NCBI GenBank assembly: GCA_963716175.1
Contig: OY970296.1
Coordinates: forward strand, 3,040,001-3,104,000
Direction of reading: 5' to 3'
From: an uncultured Armatimonadetes bacterium
GTDB taxonomy: Bacteria > Armatimonadota > Hebobacteria > Hebobacterales > Hebobacteraceae
DNA length: 64,000 bases
Part shown: piece after piece, positions 5,619 through 49,476 of the stretch
Position numbering within the stretch: the first letter of the stretch is position 1
How the letters are laid out: each line of letters begins with the position of its first letter
Made by a program: the position numbers and the translations under genes
The notes under the pieces: generated by a model
What the model saw: the letters and a program-made list of their open reading frames with translations, nothing else
What the model was told of the DNA's origin: nothing
Database searches by the model: none

Positions 5619-6959
5619 CTATTCCTCGATGCTGATGTCGGCTCCCAGTGCCTTCATGCAGTCCGCGAACTCCGGGAAGGTCACCGCTGCCGCCTCCGCA
5701 CCGTGCACGACAGTGGTTCCAGAGATGGCGCATCCCGCCACCGCCAGCGCCATTACTATCCGGTGGTCCCCGTGTCCCTCCACTTCCGCGCCGCCCAGCT
5801 CGCTCTCGTGTACGACCAGCCCATCTTCGAGTTCCTCTACCTCCGCCCCCAACTTCCTCAGCTCACATGCCATCACCGCGATCCGGTCAGACTCCTTGAT
5901 CCTTGCCTGCGGCACATTCACCAGCCGCGTCGCGCCCCTGGCGAAACACCCCAGCACGGCCAGGGTGGGCAGCGCGTCCGGTGTCGCGTTCAGGTCCAGT
6001 TCGCACCCCGCCAACTGGTGCGCCTCCACCCCGATCCAGTCGCCCCGCGCGCGCACGTGGGCCCCCATCTGGCTGATGTAATCGGCCACCGCCTTATCGC
6101 CCTGCGTATCCGTCAGATCCAGCCCCCGCAGCACGATCTCATTGTCATTCAGCGCGCCTGCCCCCAGGAAAAACGTCGCCGACGACCAGTCCGCCGGGAT
6201 CGCCCGGTCCACCGGCCGGTACTGCTGCCCCCCGGGCACGCGGAACTCCCGCAGCCCGTCTTGCTGGAACACGATCCCCTGGCGCCGCAGCCAGTCCAAA
6301 GTCATCTCCACATAGGGCGCTTCGTTCAGCTTAGTGACGTGGATCGCGCAGTCTCCATCCGCCAGCGGCGCGTTGATCAGTAGCCCGGTCACGTACTGGC
6401 TGGTGCTGCCCTCGATGGAGGTCTCCCCGCCCCGCAGCCGCCCCTCCACCACAAAGGGCGCGCTGCCTGTGCCCCGCGTGGACCGCACTTTCGCCCCCAG
6501 GTCGTTGAGAGATTCCGCCAGCGGCCCCGCCGGCCGCCGCCGGATCTGCTCGTCCCCGGTCAGCACCGCTATCCCTTCTCGCAGCAGCGCGCAGGTGCCC
6601 AGCGCCGTCCGCAGCGTCACCCCGGAATTGCGCACATCAATCACGTTCTCCGGGACGCGGATCTCGCCCCGCGTCCCGCGCACGCTCCACACCTGTGGGG
6701 CGGGCATGTCGGAGTTTACCCTGAGCGAAGCCGAAGGGCATGCCCGCTGGCCGTTCCCCGCCGCTCCCGTCTCTATCTCCGCGCCCAGCGCCTGATAGGC
6801 CTCCACCGCCGCCAGGGTGTCATTGGAAACCAGTGGCTCCCGGATCGCGCTCTCGCCTTGCGCCAGGCTGGCGATCGCCACCGCCCGGATGGTGTGCGAT
6901 TTCGACCCGGGAATACGCACCTCGCCCCGCAGCCGCGACTGGCGGCACACCAGCTTCAT
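5619..6959 (-). CDS. aroA: 3-phosphoshikimate 1-carboxyvinyltransferase (EPSP synthase)
   Basis: PGSKSHTIRA, NSGVTLR, TSQY, ARIKESDR, DHRIVMA motifs. Confidence 0.95.
   Translation of the reverse strand: MKLVCRQSRLRGEVRIPGSKSHTIRAVAIASLAQGESAIREPLVSNDTLAAVEAYQALGAEIETGAAGNGQRACPSASLRVNSDMPAPQVWSVRGTRGEIRVPENVIDVRNSGVTLRTALGTCALLREGIAVLTGDEQIRRRPAGPLAESLNDLGAKVRSTRGTGSAPFVVEGRLRGGETSIEGSTSQYVTGLLINAPLADGDCAIHVTKLNEAPYVEMTLDWLRRQGIVFQQDGLREFRVPGGQQYRPVDRAIPADWSSATFFLGAGALNDNEIVLRGLDLTDTQGDKAVADYISQMGAHVRARGDWIGVEAHQLAGCELDLNATPDALPTLAVLGCFARGATRLVNVPQARIKESDRIAVMACELRKLGAEVEELEDGLVVHESELGGAEVEGHGDHRIVMALAVAGCAISGTTVVHGAEAAAVTFPEFADCMKALGADISIEE
6694..6747 (+). repeat. Nested REP-like palindrome inside aroA CDS
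   Basis: TGTGGGGCGGGCATG...CATGCCCGC enclosing CCCTGAGCGAAGCCGAAGGG. Confidence 0.8.
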
Positions 6960-7167: not shown

Positions 7168-7194
7168 TGTAGGGCGGGCATTCCCATGCCCGCC
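7168..7194 (+). repeat. Intergenic GTAG-type REP-like palindrome
   Basis: TGTAGGGCGGGCATTCCCATGCCCGCC. Confidence 0.8.
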
Positions 7195-11914: not shown

Positions 11915-13096
11915 CTACGGCCTCATCGCCAATTCCAGCGCCAGCCTCGCCACCTCTTCCGCCGCTCGCGGCCGCCCCAGCGATCTGCTGGCCTGGGCCA
12001 TCCGATTGCGCCTGGCGTCATCCCACAGCAGCTCCTCCAGCACCTGCGCCAGCCGTTCCGCCGTCAGCTGCGCATCAGAGATGATGACCGCGGCCCCGGC
12101 CTTTGCCAGCGGCTCGGCGTTCTGCTGCTGCTCTCCCGTGCTCGCACCAGACCACGGGATGAGCACACTGGGCAGGCCCCGCGCGGTCAGCTCGGCCACT
12201 GTGCTCGCGCCCGCTCGCGACACTACCAGATCGGCGGCCGCCAGGGCCGCCGGTAGCTCTGCTCCCAGATAGGGGAGGGCGCGGTAACTCGGCGCCACCG
12301 CGCGCGCTTCCTCCGGCGCCAGTGAGACCGGATGCTGTCGGCCCGTGACGTGCAGCACCTGGAGTCCATGCAGCCGGCCGCCCTCGGCCATCATCCGGAG
12401 CGCCCCCACCAGCGCCTCGTTGATGGGCCGCGATCCCAGGCTGCCGCCGAGCGCCAGCAGTGTGGTCCACCCCGGGTCGAGCCCCAGCGCCCCCGCCCCC
12501 TCCTGCCGCATGGCCTCCACCACTTCCCGCCGCACCGGCAGCCCGGTTACCACTACTCGCGCCGATGGGCGCACTCGTGCCGCGAAGAAGGCCTCTTGCT
12601 CCGGCCAGGCCACTGCCATCACCTCGACCAACTTGGCCGCCGCGCGGCTGGTCCACCCCGGCGTTCGGTTTCCCTCCAGGGCCAGCGAGGGGATGCCCAG
12701 CAGGCGCGCCGCCAGCAGCACCGGACCCGAGACATAGCCGCCCGCGCCGATCACCACCTGAGGCCAGCAGCCGCGGAGCGCGCCTAGGCTCTGGAACAGC
12801 GGAATCCCCAGCGCCAGTTCCGCCGCTGCCCGCGCCCGCCGGCCCAGACCCCCGAGCCCGCGGCCCGCCAGGCCGTGCGCCGAGATGGCGCGGAACTCGT
12901 AGCCGGCCGCCGGCACCACCTGGGCCTCCATCCGATCGCCCCCGATGAACAGCAGCCGGACCTCCGGCCTCAGCCGCCGCAGTTCCGCCGCCACCGCCAG
13001 CGCCGGGTAGACGTGACCGCCCGTGCCGCCGGCGGCCAGCACCACGGAGCGCGCGGTCGCTCCTGCTGCGCCTTCGCGCGTGCGCGGGGCCTTCAC
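11915..13096 (-). CDS. murG: MurG GlcNAc transferase
   Basis: GGTGGHVYPA, GGYVSGP, GGSLGS, SRAGAST motifs; GTG start overlaps ftsA stop. Confidence 0.93.
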   Translation of the reverse strand: MKAPRTREGAAGATARSVVLAAGGTGGHVYPALAVAAELRRLRPEVRLLFIGGDRMEAQVVPAAGYEFRAISAHGLAGRGLGGLGRRARAAAELALGIPLFQSLGALRGCWPQVVIGAGGYVSGPVLLAARLLGIPSLALEGNRTPGWTSRAAAKLVEVMAVAWPEQEAFFAARVRPSARVVVTGLPVRREVVEAMRQEGAGALGLDPGWTTLLALGGSLGSRPINEALVGALRMMAEGGRLHGLQVLHVTGRQHPVSLAPEEARAVAPSYRALPYLGAELPAALAAADLVVSRAGASTVAELTARGLPSVLIPWSGASTGEQQQNAEPLAKAGAAVIISDAQLTAERLAQVLEELLWDDARRNRMAQASRSLGRPRAAEEVARLALELAMRP

Positions 13097-29964: not shown

Positions 29965-30396
29965 TCAGATGTCAAGATTGAGTTCCGCGGCCTCGGCCAT
30001 GATGCGCTCGGGCTGGAAATGCTCCGCCTGGTAGGCGAGCCAGCGGTCTTTAGCCCAGATCTCGATCCGGTTGATCGCCCCTCGCACCGTCACATCCCGG
30101 TGAATGCCGGCCTGCTCTCGCAGCGCCGCGGGCAGCATCAACCTGCCTTGCCGGTCCAGCCACACCTTGCTGCCGCCGCTGAAGAACTGCCTCACCCGGT
30201 CACCTTTCAGGTCGGTCAGGCGCACCTGGCTCAGCTTCTCCTCGAGCTTCAGCCACTGCTCCCAGGGGAAGAGAAAGAGACAGCCATACCAGCCGCGGGT
30301 GACGAAGCCGCCGTGCTCGAGGCTGTCTCGAAACGCTCGGGGAACTGCTACTCGCCCTCGGTCATCCAGTTGATGCTCGACCTCGCCCGTTAGCAT
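29965..30396 (-). CDS. mraZ: Transcriptional regulator MraZ
   Basis: LDDRGRVAVP and LDRQGRLMLP duplicated AbrB-like motifs; IEIW. Confidence 0.95.
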   Translation of the reverse strand: MLTGEVEHQLDDRGRVAVPRAFRDSLEHGGFVTRGWYGCLFLFPWEQWLKLEEKLSQVRLTDLKGDRVRQFFSGGSKVWLDRQGRLMLPAALREQAGIHRDVTVRGAINRIEIWAKDRWLAYQAEHFQPERIMAEAAELNLDI

Positions 30397-33188: not shown

Positions 33189-35543
33189 TCACAAGGGCAG
33201 CTTGAACGCCCGCGCGACGTAGACCGCCATCTGGTCCCGGGTTACCGCAATCTCGGGGTGGTAGAGGCCATCGGGATAGCCCGCGACAATGCCCGCTGCC
33301 TTGCTGTACTCGATGTACCTATAGGCCCAGAAACCTCTGCCCACATCGGGGAAGCTCGGCGTGCTCGGCGGCACATAGCTCTGCAGTCCGTCATCGCCCG
33401 TTGGGTCCACCACCGACCTGGCGACAAACGCGGCCATCTGACCTCGGTCCACGGGGAGCTCGGGCCGATAGTGGCGATCGTCGTATCCCCGCACGATGCT
33501 CTCGCTCGTGCAGTACTCCACGTACCTATAGGCCCACGCGCCCTTCGGCACATCGTAGAAGGTGGGCTGCTGCGGCCCTTCCGGCACGCCCTCCTCTCCA
33601 CCTGCCAGCGCGCGGGCGATGTAAGTCGCCATCTGATCGCGAGTCACCACCACCTCGGGGCGGTACGTCCCATCCTGGTAGCCGGCCACGATCTTCGCGT
33701 CTACCGCAGCCTGCACCTCATCCTTGGCCCAGAAGTACCACGGGACATCCGGGAACGGCCCCGGGCGGTACGTGAAAACCAGTATCCGGCCCGCCTGCGC
33801 ATCCAACACCCGCACGTGCCCATTCTCATCTATATGAACTGACGATGCCTGCAAGATCAGCGATTCCGTCTCGCTCCCGGCGCCTGGCCATAGGCCGATC
33901 TCGCCGAGATACTCGCCAGAGGCCGAGAACTTGGCGATGCGCTCCTCACCTGCCAGGTAGAAGCTCCCACCAAGATCCCGCGCTACCAAGCCGACGTACC
34001 TATACGAATGTTGCGGCGTCTGCCATGAATCCAGCAGCTTCCAGTCGGCATCGAACACGCCCGCCCATGCGACGCCGACGTCGGGCAGCGAAAAGCCGTA
34101 GAGGCCTACCAGGAACGTCCCGCCTGGCTCCTGGGTGACGGCCGCGCTGGTGCAGCAGGGCGCCTCCCCGGCCACCACGGGCCCGGGAATGGTGACCGAG
34201 GTTGCCTGCTCAGGACCACATATCTGAATCGGCCCCTGCCACTGCACAGAGTCTGTCCCTGGCATCTTTGCCCAGAGACTGTCTTCAGATCGCATGCACA
34301 CCCAGGAGTAGGTGGTTCCGTCCGCGGCCACCGCGTTCTGCTGCTCTGGCAGCAGCTCGACCGTGCCGGTCACGCCATTGTAGAACGGATAGCTCGCGGT
34401 CTCGGTGACGTCTACCAGCTCGCCTGTGGTGTCGAAGTGGGCGACATAACTCGGTCCCGGAGGCTCCAGGTTGAACTGCGCCCGAACGTAGGTCTGTCCG
34501 TCCGGCGTGAACGCCGCCGAGCGCGGCGACATCAGCGCGGCCCGGCGCTCCATGTCCTCTGCGTCCCCGAGCGCGAGCAGCGGGTTGCCATCCCAATCGT
34601 GCTCCTCGATCCCGAGCACTTGTCTGCAGGAGTGCGTGTATCCATCGTAGCTGGGAGTGAGCACCGTACCCTCGGGCGTCAGTGAGAAATCCAAGGCGTA
34701 GCTGTGCACCGGCGCAGCCGGCTTCAGAACCTGGCCCAGCGCGTTGTAGCACACGACGCCAAAGCTAGGTGCGAAGTCACCGAGCGGACGCAAGAGGTAC
34801 ACGTTCCCCGCGCTGTCCGTCTCCAGCGCGTACGCGCTGGGTTCCTCCCAGCCGCCGGCTTTCGAGCCATCCGGGTTGTAGTAGACTACCTGGGATACCT
34901 GCGATGGCTCCCAGGTCTGGAGCAGCGCCCACACCCCTGACGGTACCCCCGGCGCGATATGGCTGCATGTGACCTCCTCCGGGAGCGGCCACTGCTGCAG
35001 CAGCGCGCCATCGGCCGAGAGGTGGACCAGTCGCTGAGGGTAGACGCCGTCGAGCACATACAAGGACGAATCCGGCGAAACGGCCAGCGCCACCGGCGTG
35101 CTGGTCGGGCCCAGTGCCGGCCTGAGATCTAACCCGCTGACGAACTCCCCCACCGAAGTGTACCGCTGCACCGTCGCGTAGTCACGATCCAGCAGGTACA
35201 GCAAGCCTGCCGGTGCCAGCGCCATGTCCCATACCTGCGAGACCGGTTCCGGTGCGTCCGGGAGCGGGCCGCCCAGACCTCTCGCCGGAGACGAGAAAGG
35301 CCAGAACCCCTGCCAATCACCCTCCCGCGAGAAGACGTTGACCTGCAGGCCGCCAACATAGATACGGGAGGCGTCCGCTCTTACCGGGGGCACGAAACAC
35401 CCAGCACTGCTGACTCTGAGCGCCTGGATCGGCGGCTGCCCATAGGCGTAGTCGAACGCGGGGATGTCTTCGCCCCACGCCGCCGCGCAGGCCAGCGTGC
35501 TCAGGAACGCCAGCGCCAGCACCCTGAGACGACCGGCTCGCAT
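33189..35543 (-). CDS. Surface protein: NHL-like beta-propeller plus three C-terminal SLH domains
   Basis: Signal peptide; FPDVP..FWA...GIVAGYPDG.Y.PE..VTRDQMA x3. Confidence 0.9.
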   Translation of the reverse strand: MRAGRLRVLALAFLSTLACAAAWGEDIPAFDYAYGQPPIQALRVSSAGCFVPPVRADASRIYVGGLQVNVFSREGDWQGFWPFSSPARGLGGPLPDAPEPVSQVWDMALAPAGLLYLLDRDYATVQRYTSVGEFVSGLDLRPALGPTSTPVALAVSPDSSLYVLDGVYPQRLVHLSADGALLQQWPLPEEVTCSHIAPGVPSGVWALLQTWEPSQVSQVVYYNPDGSKAGGWEEPSAYALETDSAGNVYLLRPLGDFAPSFGVVCYNALGQVLKPAAPVHSYALDFSLTPEGTVLTPSYDGYTHSCRQVLGIEEHDWDGNPLLALGDAEDMERRAALMSPRSAAFTPDGQTYVRAQFNLEPPGPSYVAHFDTTGELVDVTETASYPFYNGVTGTVELLPEQQNAVAADGTTYSWVCMRSEDSLWAKMPGTDSVQWQGPIQICGPEQATSVTIPGPVVAGEAPCCTSAAVTQEPGGTFLVGLYGFSLPDVGVAWAGVFDADWKLLDSWQTPQHSYRYVGLVARDLGGSFYLAGEERIAKFSASGEYLGEIGLWPGAGSETESLILQASSVHIDENGHVRVLDAQAGRILVFTYRPGPFPDVPWYFWAKDEVQAAVDAKIVAGYQDGTYRPEVVVTRDQMATYIARALAGGEEGVPEGPQQPTFYDVPKGAWAYRYVEYCTSESIVRGYDDRHYRPELPVDRGQMAAFVARSVVDPTGDDGLQSYVPPSTPSFPDVGRGFWAYRYIEYSKAAGIVAGYPDGLYHPEIAVTRDQMAVYVARAFKLPL

Positions 35544-35667
35544 CACGTTCCCGCCCCTCTCGGCAGGGCCAGTCACTGATGGGACTGGGTAGTGGATGTG
35601 TCCAATCTACCCGCGCCGGGCGCCGCGCAAACCCCACGTCAGTGCCCGGGTAGCTTGAGGCTGCCCC

Positions 35668-38600
35668 TCACGGCCTGAACCCCTGAAACCGTTCCCCCAG
35701 AATCACTGTTCCATATCGGCCCTTCTTCTGCAGCACCCCATCCACGATCAGGGCGGAATGGGAGAAGATCACCTTTCCCCATTGCTGGTAGACGCGCTCG
35801 AACACCGTCACCTCCAGCAGCCCGGCCTCGTCCTCCATGGTGATGAAGACCACGGTGTGCCCGCTCTTGATCGGCGGCCGCTGCCGGGCGATCACGATCC
35901 CCGCCACTCGCACCCGCTTCCCATCCGGCAGCGCGTCGAGTTGATTCCGGGACACTACCCCCAGCGCGCGCAGCTTCTCCCGTGCGAAATAGAGTGGATG
36001 CCTCCTCACGCTCACGCCCATCATCGCCAGCTCGGAGGCCACCTCCTCCCGCTCGGTCAGAGGAGCGAGATCGGGCATCGTGCTGTGGTTGTCATTCTGA
36101 GCGGCTTGCCCTGCGTAGCCTTGGCGAAGCAGGGAGCGAAGAATCTCGCCGTTCTCTCTGGGGCAGGGGGCCCCTAAGCCCGCCTTCGGCGGGCCGGGGT
36201 GGCGGTCTGCCATGGCAGACCTAGCCACAGGCTCCTGCCCAACAGACTCATCTCCGCGCTGGCCCTCATGGTAGGGCAGGTCCGCGACCTGCCCCATCAC
36301 CAGCGCCAGCTGCCCGTTCACCTGCTGAGCGCGGTCGCGGCGGCGAGCGCCGGTGTTGCAGATCTCGTTCAGCTCCCACAGCAGCCTGCGCCGCGATCCG
36401 CCCATGGCATCGAACGCTCCGGCGCGAATCAGGTTCTCTACCATCGGGCGCGGCAGCCCGGTGCGCGCGCAAAATCCTCGCAATGAAAGAAAAGGCCCAT
36501 CCGCCTCCCGTGCCGCCAGCATCGCTTTCAACCCGGCCCCACTCAGCCCCATCACCTGGGCCAGCCCCACCCGGATCGCCCCCTGCTCCACCCAATAGCG
36601 ATCCCGGCTCTTATTCACGTCCACCGGCCGCACCTCGATCCCGCAGTGCTTCGCTTCCTGTAGGATCACCTCCGGGGGATAGAAGCCCATCGGCTGATTC
36701 GAGAGAATCGCCGCCAGGAACTCGGCGGGATAATGCGCCTTCAGATACGCGGTTTGATAGGCGAGGATGGCGAACGAGGCGGCGTGCGCCTTACAGAAGC
36801 CATAGGCCGCGAATGCGGAGAGCTGGCGAAAGGCCTCCTGCGCCACCGAGTCCTCGACCCCGCGCCGCCGGCATCCCTCCAGGAAAGTCCCGCGGATGCT
36901 CTCCATCTCCTCCGCCGCGCGATCGTGCGTCATCGCCCGCCGCAGCGAATCCGACTGCCCCAATGTGAACCCGGCCAGCGCGCTCGCCACCTCCAGCACC
37001 TGCTCCTGATAGAGAATCACTCCATAAGTGTCTTCCAGCGCCGGCTTCACCGCGGGGTGAATGTAGCTGACCGGTTCCTCCCCATGCCGCCGCGCCAGGA
37101 AGGGTCTGATCATATCGGCCTGCATGGGCCCGGGGCGGAACAGCGACACCTGAGCGATGATGTCATCGAAGCGGGTGGGCTGAAGCTTGGAGAGCAACCC
37201 CCTCATGCCCGGGCTCTCCAATTGGAAAACGCCCACCGTGCGCGCGGAGCGAATCAGTTGAAACGTCTTCTCATCCTCCAGGGGAAGGTGCTCCAGGTCC
37301 AGCTCGATGCCCCGCGTCTCCCGGATCGTGTGGATCGCTTCCTCGATCGCGGCGAGGTTGCGCAGCCCCAGCAGGTCCATCTTCACCAGGCCCAGGGCCT
37401 CGATATCATCTTTATCGAACTGGCAAACAACCACTCCTTTGCTCGACACCTCCAGGGGGGTGGCATCGGTGATGGGATGGCGGGATATCACCACCCCGCC
37501 CAGGTGCACGCTGAGGTGGCGCGGGAAACCGTCAATCGCCTCGCAGATATCCAGCAGCTCCTTCAGCGCCTCCGCGTCGAAGCCTGACCCCCGCAGCTCC
37601 GGCACCGTGGCGATGGCCTGGCGAATGTGGCTCGCCGGGATGTAAGGCAGGGCTTTGCTGATGCGATCAGTCAGCTCCTCCGGCAGCTCGATCGCCTTCC
37701 CCACCTCTCGGATCGCCGAGCGCGGCATTATAGGTGTTGATGGTGGCCACCATCCCGGTGTGATCCACCCCATAGCGCCGGGCCACATACTCCAGCATCT
37801 CATCCCGGCGGCGGGAGTCGAAGTCAATGTCAATATCCGGCATACCCCGCCGCTCCGGGTTGAGGAACCGCTCGAACAGCAGCCGCGCCGCGATCGGATC
37901 TACCTCGGTGATCCCCAGCACATAGCTCACCAGCGAATCCGCCGCCGATCCCCGGCCCGAGCAGCGGATCCCCCGCGCCCGCGCTTCCTCTACGATGTCC
38001 CACACCACCAGAAAGTACTCGCACAGCCCCAGCTCGCGGATGATCCTCAGCTCGTGCCGTAAGCGAGATGCCACCTGCGTTGGGCAGGAGCTTGTGGCTA
38101 GGTCTGCCATGGCAGACCGCCACCCCGGCCCGCCGAAGGCGGGCTTAGGGGCCTCCTGCCCGTCATTGTCGTTCTGTAGGGCGGGCATGTCTCCGCATGC
38201 CCGCCGCTTCCCCCGTGGGAGCCCCGTCCTCGGGGCGACTCCGTATCTCCTCCTCGCACCCTGCCAACACAACCACTCCAACAACCTCTCGGCGCTTTCC
38301 CCCTCCACCTCCTCATCAGGTTTGGGGGACCAGTCAGGGAGGGCAGGTTGCCGCCACACGGCCGGCGGCCAAGGCGGACCTGCCCTACGATCCGTCCGGT
38401 GTTTCGGGACTTCAGTCCCGAAACCACCCCCATCGCGCATCCGAAAATGCGGGAAATGCAGCTCCCCCAACCCCAGGTCTACCTCGCACCTCTCGGCGAT
38501 GCGAATCGTGTTGCACAGCGCCTCCGGGTGATGGGCGAAGGCCCGCGCCATCTCCTCCGCCGACTTCAGATAGCGCTCCGCCCCCAGCCGCCGGATGGGA

Positions 38601-39550
38601 TGCCACTCGCTCCGCCTGGTCAAGGTCTGGATGCAGGCCAGCACATCTTGGATCGTCGCTTCCTGCGGGGTGAGGTAATGCACATTCGCAGTGGCGACCG
38701 TCGGCGCCTCCATCTCCTGCGCCAAGGCCGCCAGCTTGGCCACCTGCATCCGGTCCCGCTCGCCCTCCTCCAGCATAAGCTCAATGAAGAAGTTATCCTT
38801 CCCGAAGATCTCCTGGTAGCGCCGCACCGCCCGCCGCGCCCCTTCCATATCCTCCCGCCGCACCGCCGCCGACACCTCCCCAATCCGGCATCCCGAGAGC
38901 GCGATCACATCGGCCGCGCATTTCGCCAGAGTGGAGAAGCTGCAGCAAGGCGCTTTCCTCCACTGCGCGCCGATTGTGCTGATCATGTTGGGCAGGAGCT
39001 TGTCTCCTGCCCGGCCGTTGCCGTTCTGTAGGGCGGGGTCTCCTGACCCCGCCGCCTCCGCTTCCCGCAGCACCCGAGACTGTCCCGCGGCCACCCCTTT
39101 GTTGTCATCCTGAGCGCCAGCGAAGGATCTCGCCGTTCCGCCCCTCGCCTCTCTCAGCACCCGAAACTGTCCTGCGGTCACCCCTTTGTTGTCATCCTGA
39201 GCGCTAGCGAAGGATCTCGCCGTTCCGCCCCTCGCCTCTCTCAACACCCGAAACTGTCCCGCGGTCACCATCCGCGACAAATTCCCGTACCCCCTCTTCG
39301 AGGCCGCAACCACGGTGAGATGGTGCCCGCCCTCCGTGGTCAGCTCCACCCCCAGAATCGGCTTGATCCCCGCCGCCTTCGCCGCCTGGTAAAACCGCAC
39401 CGCTCCATACAGCCCATCGTGATCCGTCACTGCCAGCGCCGGCATCCCCAGCTCGGCCACCCGCGCCACCAACCGGTCCAGTCGGCAGGTGCTGTCGAGG
39501 AAGGAGAAGACGCTGTGGAGATGGAGATGAACGAAATCTCTAGCTGTCAT
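35668..39550 (-). CDS. dnaE2: Error-prone DNA polymerase III alpha-type DnaE2 (one-base frameshift near 37724; four repeat-derived insertion blocks)
   Basis: HLHSVFSFLD PHP, GRGSAADS, PDIDIDF, GFPRHLSVH, QFDKDD, YGFCKAHAASFA, NQPMGFY, RQRPP..VFITMEDE. Confidence 0.9.
36091..36294. repeat. In-frame REP cluster in dnaE2 C-terminal region
   Basis: GTCATTCTGAGCG..AGCGAAGAATCTC (36091-147), 83-bp composite (36161-243), GTAGGGCAGGTCCGCGACCTGCCC (36271-294). Confidence 0.85.
38079..38238. repeat. In-frame REP cluster in dnaE2
   Basis: 83-bp composite (38079-161), TGTAGGGCGGGCATGTCTCCGCATGCCCGCC (38175-205), GTGGGAGCCCCGTCCTCGGGGCGA (38215-238). Confidence 0.85.
38341..38424. repeat. In-frame REP cluster in dnaE2
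   Basis: Minus GTAGGGCAGGT[CCGCC..TGGCGG]CAACCTGCCC (38341-388); GTTTCGGGACTTCAGTCCCGAAAC (38401-424). Confidence 0.8.
38986..39270. repeat. In-frame REP cluster and 87-bp tandem repeat in dnaE2 PHP domain
   Basis: TGTTGGGCAGGAGCTTGTCTCCTGCCC, TGTAGGGCGGGGTCTCCTGACCCCGCC, and about 2.3 x 87 bp units starting 39071/39158/39245; the two full units contain GTCATCCTGAGCGCYAGCGAAGGATCTC. Confidence 0.9.
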
Positions 39551-39567
39551 CTGAGCCCGCCGTCGTT

Positions 39568-39594
39568 TGTAGGGGAGCCCCTCAGCGGGCTCCC
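39568..39594 (+). repeat. GTAG-type REP-like palindrome in dnaE2 5' UTR
   Basis: TGTAGGGGAGCCCCTCAGCGGGCTCCC. Confidence 0.7.
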
Positions 39595-39603
39595 TCCTGC
39601 CTG

Positions 39604-39632
39604 AACATAACGCAAACATACGTTTGTGTCAA
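39604..39632 (-). promoter_or_regulatory. dnaE2 promoter with LexA (SOS)-like operator
   Basis: Minus TTGACA-17 nt-TATGTT; palindrome CAAAC-ATAC-GTTTG (39613-39626) in the spacer, resembling GAAC-N4-GTTC. Confidence 0.75.
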
Positions 39633-39665
39633 GAGGCTGTGGAAACGACGTGGACAGCACGCCTG

Positions 39666-39691
39666 GTTGGGCAGGAGCTTGCCTCCTGCCC
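39666..39691 (+). repeat. REP-like palindrome (left flank of 39729..40418 gene)
   Basis: GTTGGGCAGGAGCTTGCCTCCTGCCC. Confidence 0.8.
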
Positions 39692-39728
39692 AGAGAACAC
39701 AACCTCACTGTCAAGGGGGAGGGCAAAC

Positions 39729-40418
39729 GTGGCGGCGAACGGTCTTCCTGGTTCGGGCGCACTCGAAGTCCCGCTCACTCAGGCTCAAGTCCAAGCTGCC
39801 AACCACCTTCACGAACGCATGGCTGGTTGGAGGCTATTCGACGGCGTCCTCTCCAGTTTAGCCGAACACTTCCCCAGCAACTGCGACCTGGCGCAAGTTC
39901 TTCCCAAAGCTATAACGCTCAACAGCCTATATGCCACAAGGATCATGGCCATCCAGCAGATGGCACACCACGTCGTGTCCACCTTCCAGGGCGGTTGCGA
40001 TGAGTCGAGCCCCGATCTTGTCGAGAAGCTAGCCGCGCTGTCGGATCTCGGACCGGCCAAGAAAACCAAGCGCTTTGTCAGCTTCGCCAGCAAGTACTGC
40101 CACTTCTTCGTTAACCGGGGCCGCTTCGCGATCCTCGATACCTATGCGTTCAGCGCCCTGTCGTTCCACATTGGCAAGAAGAGGCTAAGAGTTCACAGAT
40201 ACGAGGACTACCTTAACGCGGTGGACAGCCTTCGAGCCGGAGCCGGCCTGTTGTGCAACTACTCGGAACTGGATCACTACCTCTGGCTCCGCGGGCAATG
40301 GATGGCGTTCAGCCTGAACGAGAACGCTCCCATCAACGGAGAAGCAAGGGAGGTCTTTCAGACCCCAGATCCGGCAGTGCGTTCTCTGCGCGACCGCGCC
40401 TTTCCGCTCGGCCCGTAG
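39729..40418 (+). CDS. Hypothetical protein, possible helix-hairpin-helix glycosylase-like fold
   Basis: GGAGGG RBS then GTG; LNSLYAT, SFASKYCHF, AILDTY, LDHYLW motifs; visibly lower GC. Confidence 0.75.
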   Translation: MAANGLPGSGALEVPLTQAQVQAANHLHERMAGWRLFDGVLSSLAEHFPSNCDLAQVLPKAITLNSLYATRIMAIQQMAHHVVSTFQGGCDESSPDLVEKLAALSDLGPAKKTKRFVSFASKYCHFFVNRGRFAILDTYAFSALSFHIGKKRLRVHRYEDYLNAVDSLRAGAGLLCNYSELDHYLWLRGQWMAFSLNENAPINGEAREVFQTPDPAVRSLRDRAFPLGP

Positions 40419-49382: not shown

Positions 49383-49476
49383 GGCGGGCATGCCCATGCC
49401 CGCCGGGCAGGTCGCGGACCTGCCCTACCCGTTGGGCCGGAAAGGTGTGTTGTAGGGCGGCCATGCGCAGGTCGCC
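49378..49476. repeat. Cluster of three REP-like palindromes after glyS
   Basis: TGTAGGGCGGGCATGCCCATGCCCGCC; GGGCAGGTCGCGGACCTGCCCTAC (inverted); TGTAGGGCGGCCATGCGCAGGTCGCC. Confidence 0.8.

Follow-up and report, generated by a model that had tools for sequence, protein, structure and literature searches.

REPs of the GTAG and CGTC classes are known to lie within genes in many species. In its treatment of intragenic repeats, the survey of Di Nocera, De Gregorio and Rocco (2013; PMC3733652) reports tagged palindromes inside ORFs and clusters of up to ~82 aa, with tRNA synthetase, truB and ligase genes among the targets and genes of the same category mostly struck at different sites. Its dnaE2 entries name four species (inserts at 934–971 in O. 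terrae, 166–246 in S. wittichii, 128–157 in R. palustris and 175–203 in E. litoralis), each row giving one site and one family. Our literature search for a link between REPs and dnaE2 found only this survey, which also speaks against an assumption of the first-pass annotation of the locus described below, namely that most known coding insertions come from Rickettsia. According to PMC8266576, RAYT (TnpA-REP) transposases cut beside single-stranded REPs. Rickettsia palindromic elements (RPE) offer a further parallel, being palindromes whose translation adds loops to functional proteins. RPE-1 is longer and forms a single family, unlike the inserts of the present gene, which are mosaics of 25–60-nt units concentrated in one gene.

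Here we describe a polymerase gene of an uncultured Armatimonadetes bacterium (source genome G000); coordinates refer to the window, the whole 64,000-nt stretch analysed. The in-frame REPs of this dnaE2-like gene are of an already known kind, and the gene is an extreme case of it: compared with the dnaE2 entries of PMC3733652, it has four sites, ~seven sequence types, putatively of both classes, and nested mini-elements, and its family re-uses the same loops across genera. We favor, with some reserve, the reading that a functioning LexA-repressed DnaE2-type polymerase accumulates selfish repeats of the REP type, which would be spread by RAYTs and tolerated in loops.

A dnaE2-like gene with a LexA-type box

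The gene (35668..39550, minus strand) encodes a C-family polymerase of ~1293 aa when read across a single frameshift (see below). Pfam places PHP, palm, fingers, HhH and OB domains in the product, which stops at the OB fold and lacks the C-terminal extension of its replicative paralogue. The latter is encoded by a separate dnaE1 at G000:3.848–3.852 Mb, scores above the replicative cut-offs and continues for ~135 aa beyond the OB fold, an extension that is presumably tau-binding. As a second Pol III alpha paralogue ending after the OB fold, the gene resembles DnaE2/ImuC, and so it does in having a LexA-type box that is also found before a Y-family (ImuB-like) gene. This palindromic box (39613..39626) overlaps a −35-like hexamer and, allowing one mismatch, precedes the gene or its orthologue in 15 of 17 cases; boxes of the same type occur at three sites before lexA and one before a DUF6504-like/Y-family cassette. 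Unlike DnaE2/ImuC, the gene falls below the NCBIfam NF004225 cut-off (939 bits; orthologues score 852 and 894) and stands apart from the ImuB-like gene, which lies ~440 kb away under the same box and not in an imuA-imuB-dnaE2 cassette. The replicative cut-offs (1002) are missed too (orthologues at 943 and 974). Overall, sequence comparison points to a DnaE2-type polymerase, putatively LexA-repressed.

Four in-frame insert blocks

The gene holds 12 outer REP-type hairpins and four nested mini-elements, arranged in four in-frame blocks (loops S1–S4, all given on the minus strand; extents and net gains from orthologue alignment). The first-pass annotation, made from the sequence alone, had proposed four blocks, all keeping the frame, about 12 palindromic elements and an excess of ~250 aa. 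Every block indeed exists and keeps the frame, and the element count agrees with ours; the excess amounts to ~256 aa (94+43+50+69) against distant homologues and to ~205–215 aa against the emptiest alleles of the same family. One boundary, placed at 38305, proved to be ~37 nt too far, reaching into family-conserved sequence.

S1 (38975..39232, net +71 aa) lies in the PHP domain. Host sequence together with a repeat has been duplicated in tandem there over 87 nt (92% identity between copies), and the block holds four elements, all on the plus strand: a GTAG hairpin, a GTTG hairpin and a pair tagged TGTC. The TGTC elements are imperfect hairpins, putatively of the CGTC class (copy 1 at 39190..39216, copy 2 at 39103..39129), and the GTAG (39028..39053) and GTTG (38987..39012) hairpins have 15 and 24 genome copies, respectively, within 4 mismatches. 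The GTTG hairpin is 96% identical to an intergenic one upstream of the promoter (39666..39691, plus strand), a match already recognized in the first pass. One more GTAG hairpin (39569..39595, plus strand) occupies the 5′ leader between the LexA-type box and the start codon.

S2 (38342..38431, net +25 aa), at the end of the PHP domain, combines a GTGT hairpin (38399–38425) with a GTAG hairpin (38342–38388) that carries a ~24-nt mini-element in its loop. S3 (38075..38239, net +42 to +51 aa) precedes the palm and comprises a GTGG hairpin, a GTAG hairpin and a GTTG hairpin with a 57-nt double hairpin. Its GTAG member is a 33-nt REP (38174..38206, plus strand) present exactly at 6 genome places, one of them directly preceding a RAYT gene (G000:961980); the segment 38175–38205 has arms in common with repeats at 7168 and 49378, as had been noted. 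The TA-bulged 57-nt double hairpin (38095..38151, plus strand), nested in a REP loop, occurs at only two genome places, both inside the dnaE2-like gene.

S4 (36085..36297, net +65 to +67 aa), between the HhH and OB domains, begins right after a conserved Q-L-x-L stretch that we take to be clamp-binding-like. It contains a GTAG hairpin, a GTTG hairpin with a nested double hairpin, and a TGTC element with a nested 30-mer. An 83-nt composite in this block (36161..36243, minus strand) is a 98% inverted copy of 38079–38161 in S3 and is found nowhere else in the genome, marking it as a local copy between the two loops. The nested 30-nt mini-element (36107..36136, plus strand) has a 28-nt core recurring at 10 genome places within 4 mismatches, several of them inside the loops of other repeats. 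The previously reported identity of 36271–36294 with the exact reverse complement of 49405–49428 holds as well.

Reading frame and selection

At 3883 nt (1 mod 3), the assembled gene does not form a single ORF: an extra base at ~37724 (+1 frameshift, 37722..37726, minus strand), located in the conserved core outside the inserts, separates a 627-aa ORF from the frame of the C-terminal part. The earlier estimate of a ~1290-aa product is thus correct in length and valid only across this frameshift, which had been missed. Around the extra base the gene has 49 nt vs 48 nt in 12 of 12 aligned orthologues. The frameshift is probably an assembly error, since the base is absent from the contigs of runs X2 and X3 (two other studies) that cover the site; frameshifts are present in 4 of 28 conserved genes checked in the same assembly.

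That the gene is a pseudogene gathering repeats, or that its inserts are assembly artefacts, would fit the broken core and the S1 87-nt duplication, which none of the contigs listed bridges. This reading is largely refuted, and we hold it very improbable: apart from the X2 and X3 contigs and the frameshifts elsewhere in the assembly, one X3 contig spans the whole of S4 while others cross the S1–S3 junctions, the core evolves under purifying selection (dN/dS 0.07–0.20 in 10 orthologue pairs with G000), and still larger arrays sit in orthologues whose reading frame is unbroken (L126, 1357 aa; L128, 1327 aa). The catalytic aspartates are intact, aligning with those of Taq Pol III alpha. Among the substitutions listed from other-study contigs, 35 fall in the gene (22 synonymous, 13 non-synonymous; five of the 40 rows lay outside and were dropped, and 194 further rows are outside the count); this set, mixing strains and a more distant relative, was given no weight.

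The same loops in relatives and in predicted structures

In an alignment of 89 genes, 14 of them with REP-arm matches, 63 of the 64 matches lie in six intervals, 55 of these in S1–S4. In relatives, these loops house elements that differ from those of the source gene, and the insert peptides of different lineages have no common sequence, length or reading orientation. The loops are empty or nearly so in L034, L036 and L116, and sister pairs may differ widely, as at S3 (+24 aa in L114 vs +175 aa in L126) and S4 (+40 aa in L031 vs +101 aa in L121). The family supplies a map of six positions at which a C-family polymerase takes inserts of up to ~180 residues; it includes alleles with and without inserts in a given loop, and sister pairs differing by single nested units.

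As judged from AlphaFold models, the inserts would be floppy surface loops, consistent with the initial idea that they form new peptide loops. In the model of the G005 orthologue (pTM 0.80) pLDDT falls below 50 in exactly four segments, and these are the insert loops; the structural placement of S4 comes from this model (pLDDT < 50 at 1002–1055). The model of the window protein covers the N-terminal half, where S1–S3 are three of the low-confidence regions (pLDDT < 50 at residues 111–197 for S1). Locus L160 is absent from the alignments behind the folding.

The arrays could in theory have been selected for altering DnaE2 output, and hence mutation rate, through ribosome stalling, mRNA or protein turnover, or partner binding. 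Predicted mRNA hairpins are stable in four insert segments (z −2.6 to −5.4, vs +0.8 and +1.6 in two core segments), one REP sits in the 5′ leader as well, and mutator effects are speculated on in the survey's discussion of such repeats (PMC3733652). On the other hand, the divergence of the peptides between lineages, the relatives with empty loops and the presence of the same repeat families in unrelated genes make such adaptive tuning quite improbable.

REP families and RAYT genes of the genome

The inserts belong to several genome-wide REP families, which bears out the multi-family repeat system proposed in the first pass. Hairpin-complete copies of the REP-type families number 557, compared with 17 in a shuffled genome, and the individual insert seeds have 1–55 genome copies each vs 0 in each of three shuffles per seed. 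Nine of the in-gene elements are short palindromes with a GTAG, GTTG, GTGG or GTGT tag at the foot, a trait of GTAG-class REPs. The other three have TGTC+AT and the partner arm, with interrupted stems longer than the 8–9 bp of the CGTC class, which the survey defines by a CGTC/TGTC tag, an 8–9-bp stem starting AT, a 4–5-nt loop and a short tail (PMC3733652). By a conservative rule 50 of 447 repeat clusters are intragenic, the families being mostly extragenic, as are GTAG-class REPs; a looser rule places 66 elements within 59 called genes. The REP-bearing candidate ORFs are of mixed function (Pfam on 45 of 48, the halves of dnaE2 and a 75-aa ORF being set aside). Rfam gave no match over 35400–39900 at E ≤ 0.1, a search of other genomes for similar stretches found none, and REP orientation could not be related to replication direction because the irregular cumulative GC skew allowed no replichore assignment.

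A search for RAYT/Y1 transposases, suggested in the first pass, yielded five genes. All five Y1 proteins of the genome score above the RAYT cut-off NF047646 (92–104 bits vs 80), and their genes adjoin GTAG/GTTG hairpins: catalogue copies at four, GTAG hairpins read by eye at the fifth. These HUH Y1 genes, candidate RAYTs flanked by GTAG-tagged perfect hairpins similar to group-3 REPs, resemble the REPtron system (PMC8266576); as differences, five RAYT genes share one genome, the tags vary (GTAG, GTTG, GTGG, GTGT), and the REPtron scheme gives no account of the TGTC class or of nested elements. TGTC/CGTC-class repeats appear in the survey as having no known transposase (PMC3733652). Small GIY-YIG genes were considered as possible movers of this class; catalogue repeats lie near one of three.

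Tolerance or targeting

In the reading that we favor, RAYTs acting on single-stranded DNA would lay down REPs by cleavage and strand transfer, and only frame-keeping, stop-free landings in about six tolerant loops would survive. Any cost that mRNA hairpins and floppy loops impose would rarely be exposed because the gene is presumably repressed most of the time and dispensable, a replicative dnaE1 being present. A seeded loop might then feed itself, a REP being a RAYT substrate and its loop a target for smaller elements; arrays could also grow by local copying and tandem duplication of units, the insert peptides being probably near-neutral. This scheme builds on the observed REP families, their flanking of RAYT genes, the in-frame confinement to loops, the purifying selection on the core and the varied elements in relatives.

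The first-pass view of dnaE2 as a hotspot is borne out as gene-specific: the relatives' dnaE2 genes have 26 REP-arm matches in 29.7 kb, compared with one in 119.2 kb of five controls (uvrA, ligA, priA, alaS, dnaE1). The source gene has four REP-bearing sites in 3.9 kb vs ~0.07 expected (Poisson 1e-6; ~1e-3 genome-wide) and accounts for 3 of the genome's 18 clusters of at least three elements. At the loci compared, tag hairpins are no less dense in dnaE2 (49 in 73.4 kb) than in the rest of the DNA, which is mostly non-coding (24 in 54.3 kb); this counts against plain tolerance. The strength of the bias is not obviously explained by tolerance alone.

Insertion itself might be biased, with dnaE2 being single-stranded during SOS induction, when HUH transposases would be most active. 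Besides the numerical excess, such active targeting could claim the conserved LexA-type box, the strand bias (of 64 matches, 46 have their tag on the template strand and 18 on the other, a skew for which stop-codon avoidance is only a partial explanation) and the unrelatedness of the four species with dnaE2 REPs in the survey's entries (PMC3733652). None of the 29 LexA-type box sites scoring at least 12 bits precedes a RAYT gene, however, and the other damage-response genes checked are without internal REPs, a point that is not decisive, since most of these genes are shorter and loops able to take inserts may be missing from them. We rate targeting as rather unlikely. An extended form of it, in which the mechanism itself would direct REPs moved by RAYTs, TGTC repeats and 24–57-nt elements homing into REP loops to dnaE2, with insertion coupled to damage-induced expression or activity, is in our judgement unlikely; were it true, selfish repeats would repeatedly remodel the enzyme setting the mutation rate of their host. 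The five candidate RAYTs, the matched control genes and the allele set make tolerance vs targeting directly testable, and the family bears on the spread of REPs and their preference for repair genes.

No sign of SOS-wide targeting came from the further damage-response genes examined: in the source genome, no internal REPs occur in lexA, the Y-family cassette gene, dinB, the radical-SAM repair gene or uvrA, and recA has no net insertion. In ligA, priA and alaS, compared with their orthologues, the repeat takes the place of a host linker, with small net gain.

The dnaE2-like gene and its four insert loops

The dnaE2-like gene (39550-35668, minus strand; domains PHP, palm, finger, HhH and OB) carries four insert loops, designated S1 (38975-39232), S2 (38342-38431), S3 (38075-38239) and S4 (36085-36297), all on the minus strand, with net gains of 71, 25, 42-51 and 65-67 aa, respectively, over the emptiest alleles of the same family. 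The first-pass annotation had described four repeat-built blocks in one continuous frame; orthologue alignment recovers all four, but the gene as assembled is split by an extra base. The three matches it listed between the blocks and intergenic copies hold on re-comparison.

The gene contains 12 REP-type elements (short tagged hairpin repeats), three with TGTC tags and nine with GTAG, GTTG, GTGG or GTGT tags, and four of the 12 have a smaller element nested in their loop. Within the genome, a nested mini-element of ~24 nt occurs at 19 places (within 2 mismatches), the 28-nt core of a 30-nt one at 10 places, and a nested 57-nt double hairpin twice. An 83-nt unit of REP plus double hairpin is found only in S3 and S4, the two copies being 98% identical and inverted relative to each other; in S1, an 87-nt stretch of host sequence and repeat is duplicated in tandem. 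In the AlphaFold model of the intact G005 orthologue (37 sequences, pTM 0.80), pLDDT falls below 50 in exactly four segments, which are the four loops; S1-S3 are likewise of low confidence (pLDDT < 50) in a model of the N-terminal half of the window protein.

At S1, the "empty" alleles of four relatives (G013, G014, G010 and G004) keep a 23-aa extension whose DNA, by eye, loosely resembles decayed REP arms and which may be an old domesticated insert. Contigs from each of the four sediment/wetland runs cover the TGTC element at 39100-39243 at very high depth (309-934); it is therefore widespread in other organisms.

We read the gene as DnaE2-like and putatively SOS-controlled because the genome has a separate replicative dnaE1 with a longer C-terminus (with no internal match to the REP catalogue of this genome), and because a conserved box is common to lexA and a Y-family cassette. 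This palindromic box overlaps a -35-like hexamer, is present in 15 of 17 upstream regions when 1 mismatch is allowed, and recurs at three sites before lexA and one before the DUF6504-like/Y-family cassette (DUF6504 match below cut-off), which is not adjacent to the dnaE2-like gene. Orthologues of the protein fall short of the NF004225 cut-off. LexA-type boxes were also seen ~40 nt before an IS110-family-like transposase ORF (G000:44978) and, as a weaker site (16.7 bits, window ~30602), ~200 nt upstream of an mraZ-like ORF (29965-30396), both ORFs being named by eye.

Integrity of the reading frame

In the assembly the gene spans 3883 nt, and a single surplus base near 37724 interrupts its conserved core; the segment in question has 49 nt here, and 12 of 12 orthologues have 48 nt. 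The extra base is absent at full depth from the covering contigs of two sequencing runs from two studies (X2 and X3), and similar breaks affect 4 of 28 conserved genes of the same assembly. The frameshift is most likely an assembly error; it may instead be a strain-specific mutation. Core dN/dS is 0.07-0.20 (10 pairs, each against this genome). S4 is covered from end to end by one X3 contig, whose record exceeds the window stretch by 24 nt and aligns with 24 gap positions, and junctions in S1-S3 are crossed by other contigs; the S1 duplication is bridged by no contig among those listed.

A hotspot within the genome

The REP catalogue gives 657 matches in the genome, 557 of them hairpin-complete; after triplet shuffling of the genome the corresponding figures are 45 and 17. 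All five Y1 transposase genes pass the RAYT cut-off and are adjoined by tagged hairpins; the 33-nt REP at 38174-38206 occurs exactly at 6 places, one of which immediately precedes a RAYT gene. Close to small GIY-YIG genes lie palindromes that are double-hairpin-like or of the GTGT type (L055:1406-1458; L056:1319-1364).

The highest count in any 3.9-kb window lies over the dnaE2-like gene (13 REPs, two of them upstream), the next best elsewhere being 8. Among the 132 called genes of at least 800 aa, from which the split dnaE2 was left out, nine hold one element and none more than one. The other candidate genes with REPs vary in function (ligA, priA, a DHH-family gene, alaS, tilS, tgt, two radical-SAM genes, aroA, glycosyltransferases, and truB- and recG-like ORFs named by eye only). 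In aroA (5622-6959, minus strand), the EPSP synthase frame stays open across a GTGG hairpin that carries a nested insert (6695-6747), at residues ~71-89; a weak one-mismatch match within murG (12274-12303; gene 11918-13045, minus strand) may be a false positive.

The hotspot across relatives

Matches to hairpin arms learnt from this genome numbered 26 in 29,706 nt of relatives' dnaE2 (6 of 10 loci positive, from 8 genomes, the query orthologue's 3 further hits being counted apart), as compared with uvrA 0 (12 loci), ligA 0 (12), priA 1 (13), alaS 0 (11) and dnaE1 0 (5) in 119,191 nt of control genes, counts in which one element may score at both ends and kin do not count as independent. With a family-free detector applied to 26 loci, dnaE2 had 49 matches over 73.4 kb, some of them background; flanking coding DNA had 5 over 88.2 kb, the remaining DNA 24 over 54.3 kb, and a set of 19 short homologues free of inserts (58.8 kb) had none.

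Of 97 fetched dnaE2 loci, all were kept except 9 that were broken or fragmentary, and 89 genes, this genome's included, were aligned; arm hits occur in 14 of the 89, and 63 of the 64 hits fall inside six intervals. Each loop holds different element types in different lineages, and whole arrays distinguish sister sequences from one another; gains are therefore recurrent. Cases heavier than the window gene exist as single open frames (L126, 1357 aa; L128, 1327 aa).

In the only paper found on dnaE2 and palindromes, the accessible text (PMC3733652) reports intragenic REPs in repair genes, DnaE2 being named for four species and a single site carrying up to about 81 aa. The present gene shares with those cases REPs inside dnaE2, a repair gene, and differs from them, as far as that text describes them, in greater degree, nested elements and re-use of the same loops; these features, together with the gene-level controls, are what is added here.

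In ligA (L094, residues 589-596), alaS (L082, 263-271) and priA (L084, 225-233), a REP stands in place of host linker with little net length change, which suggests overwriting rather than simple insertion. An insert of 451 aa in the dnaE homologue L174 resembles an intein at its ends, starting with Cys and finishing with His-Asn (by eye). In three distant homologues (L177, L178, L185), loops are expanded by 44-178 aa and mostly lack hairpins; two of these expansions lie at sites used by REPs in L128. Two dnaE2-like loci in G004 (C137, C108) and two partial ones in G001 (1.876 Mb, 2.277 Mb) may reflect either duplication or binning.

Possible routes of insertion

Targeting of REP insertion to SOS genes at large appears unlikely, as lexA, the Y-family genes, a radical-SAM repair gene, uvrA and recA are all clean and no LexA-type box precedes any RAYT gene. 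Adaptive tuning by the inserts, for which hairpin stability is the sole support, seems less likely still. A preprint on REPINs under stress (10.1101/2024.07.17.603846), in its accessible part, reports stress-dependent protection but no circles, and does not decide the mechanism either way.

The best reading, which we consider reasonably probable, is that RAYTs would deliver REPs, that insertions would survive only where loops of dnaE2, presumably a normally repressed and dispensable gene, tolerate them, and that arrays, once seeded, would feed their own growth. According to the accessible text of PMC8266576, RAYTs cut single-stranded REP substrates beside the hairpin and then transfer strands. 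Tolerance as the whole explanation is disfavored by a REP density in dnaE2 no lower than in non-coding DNA, and by the strand bias of the elements, 46 of the 64 arm hits having their tag on the template strand.
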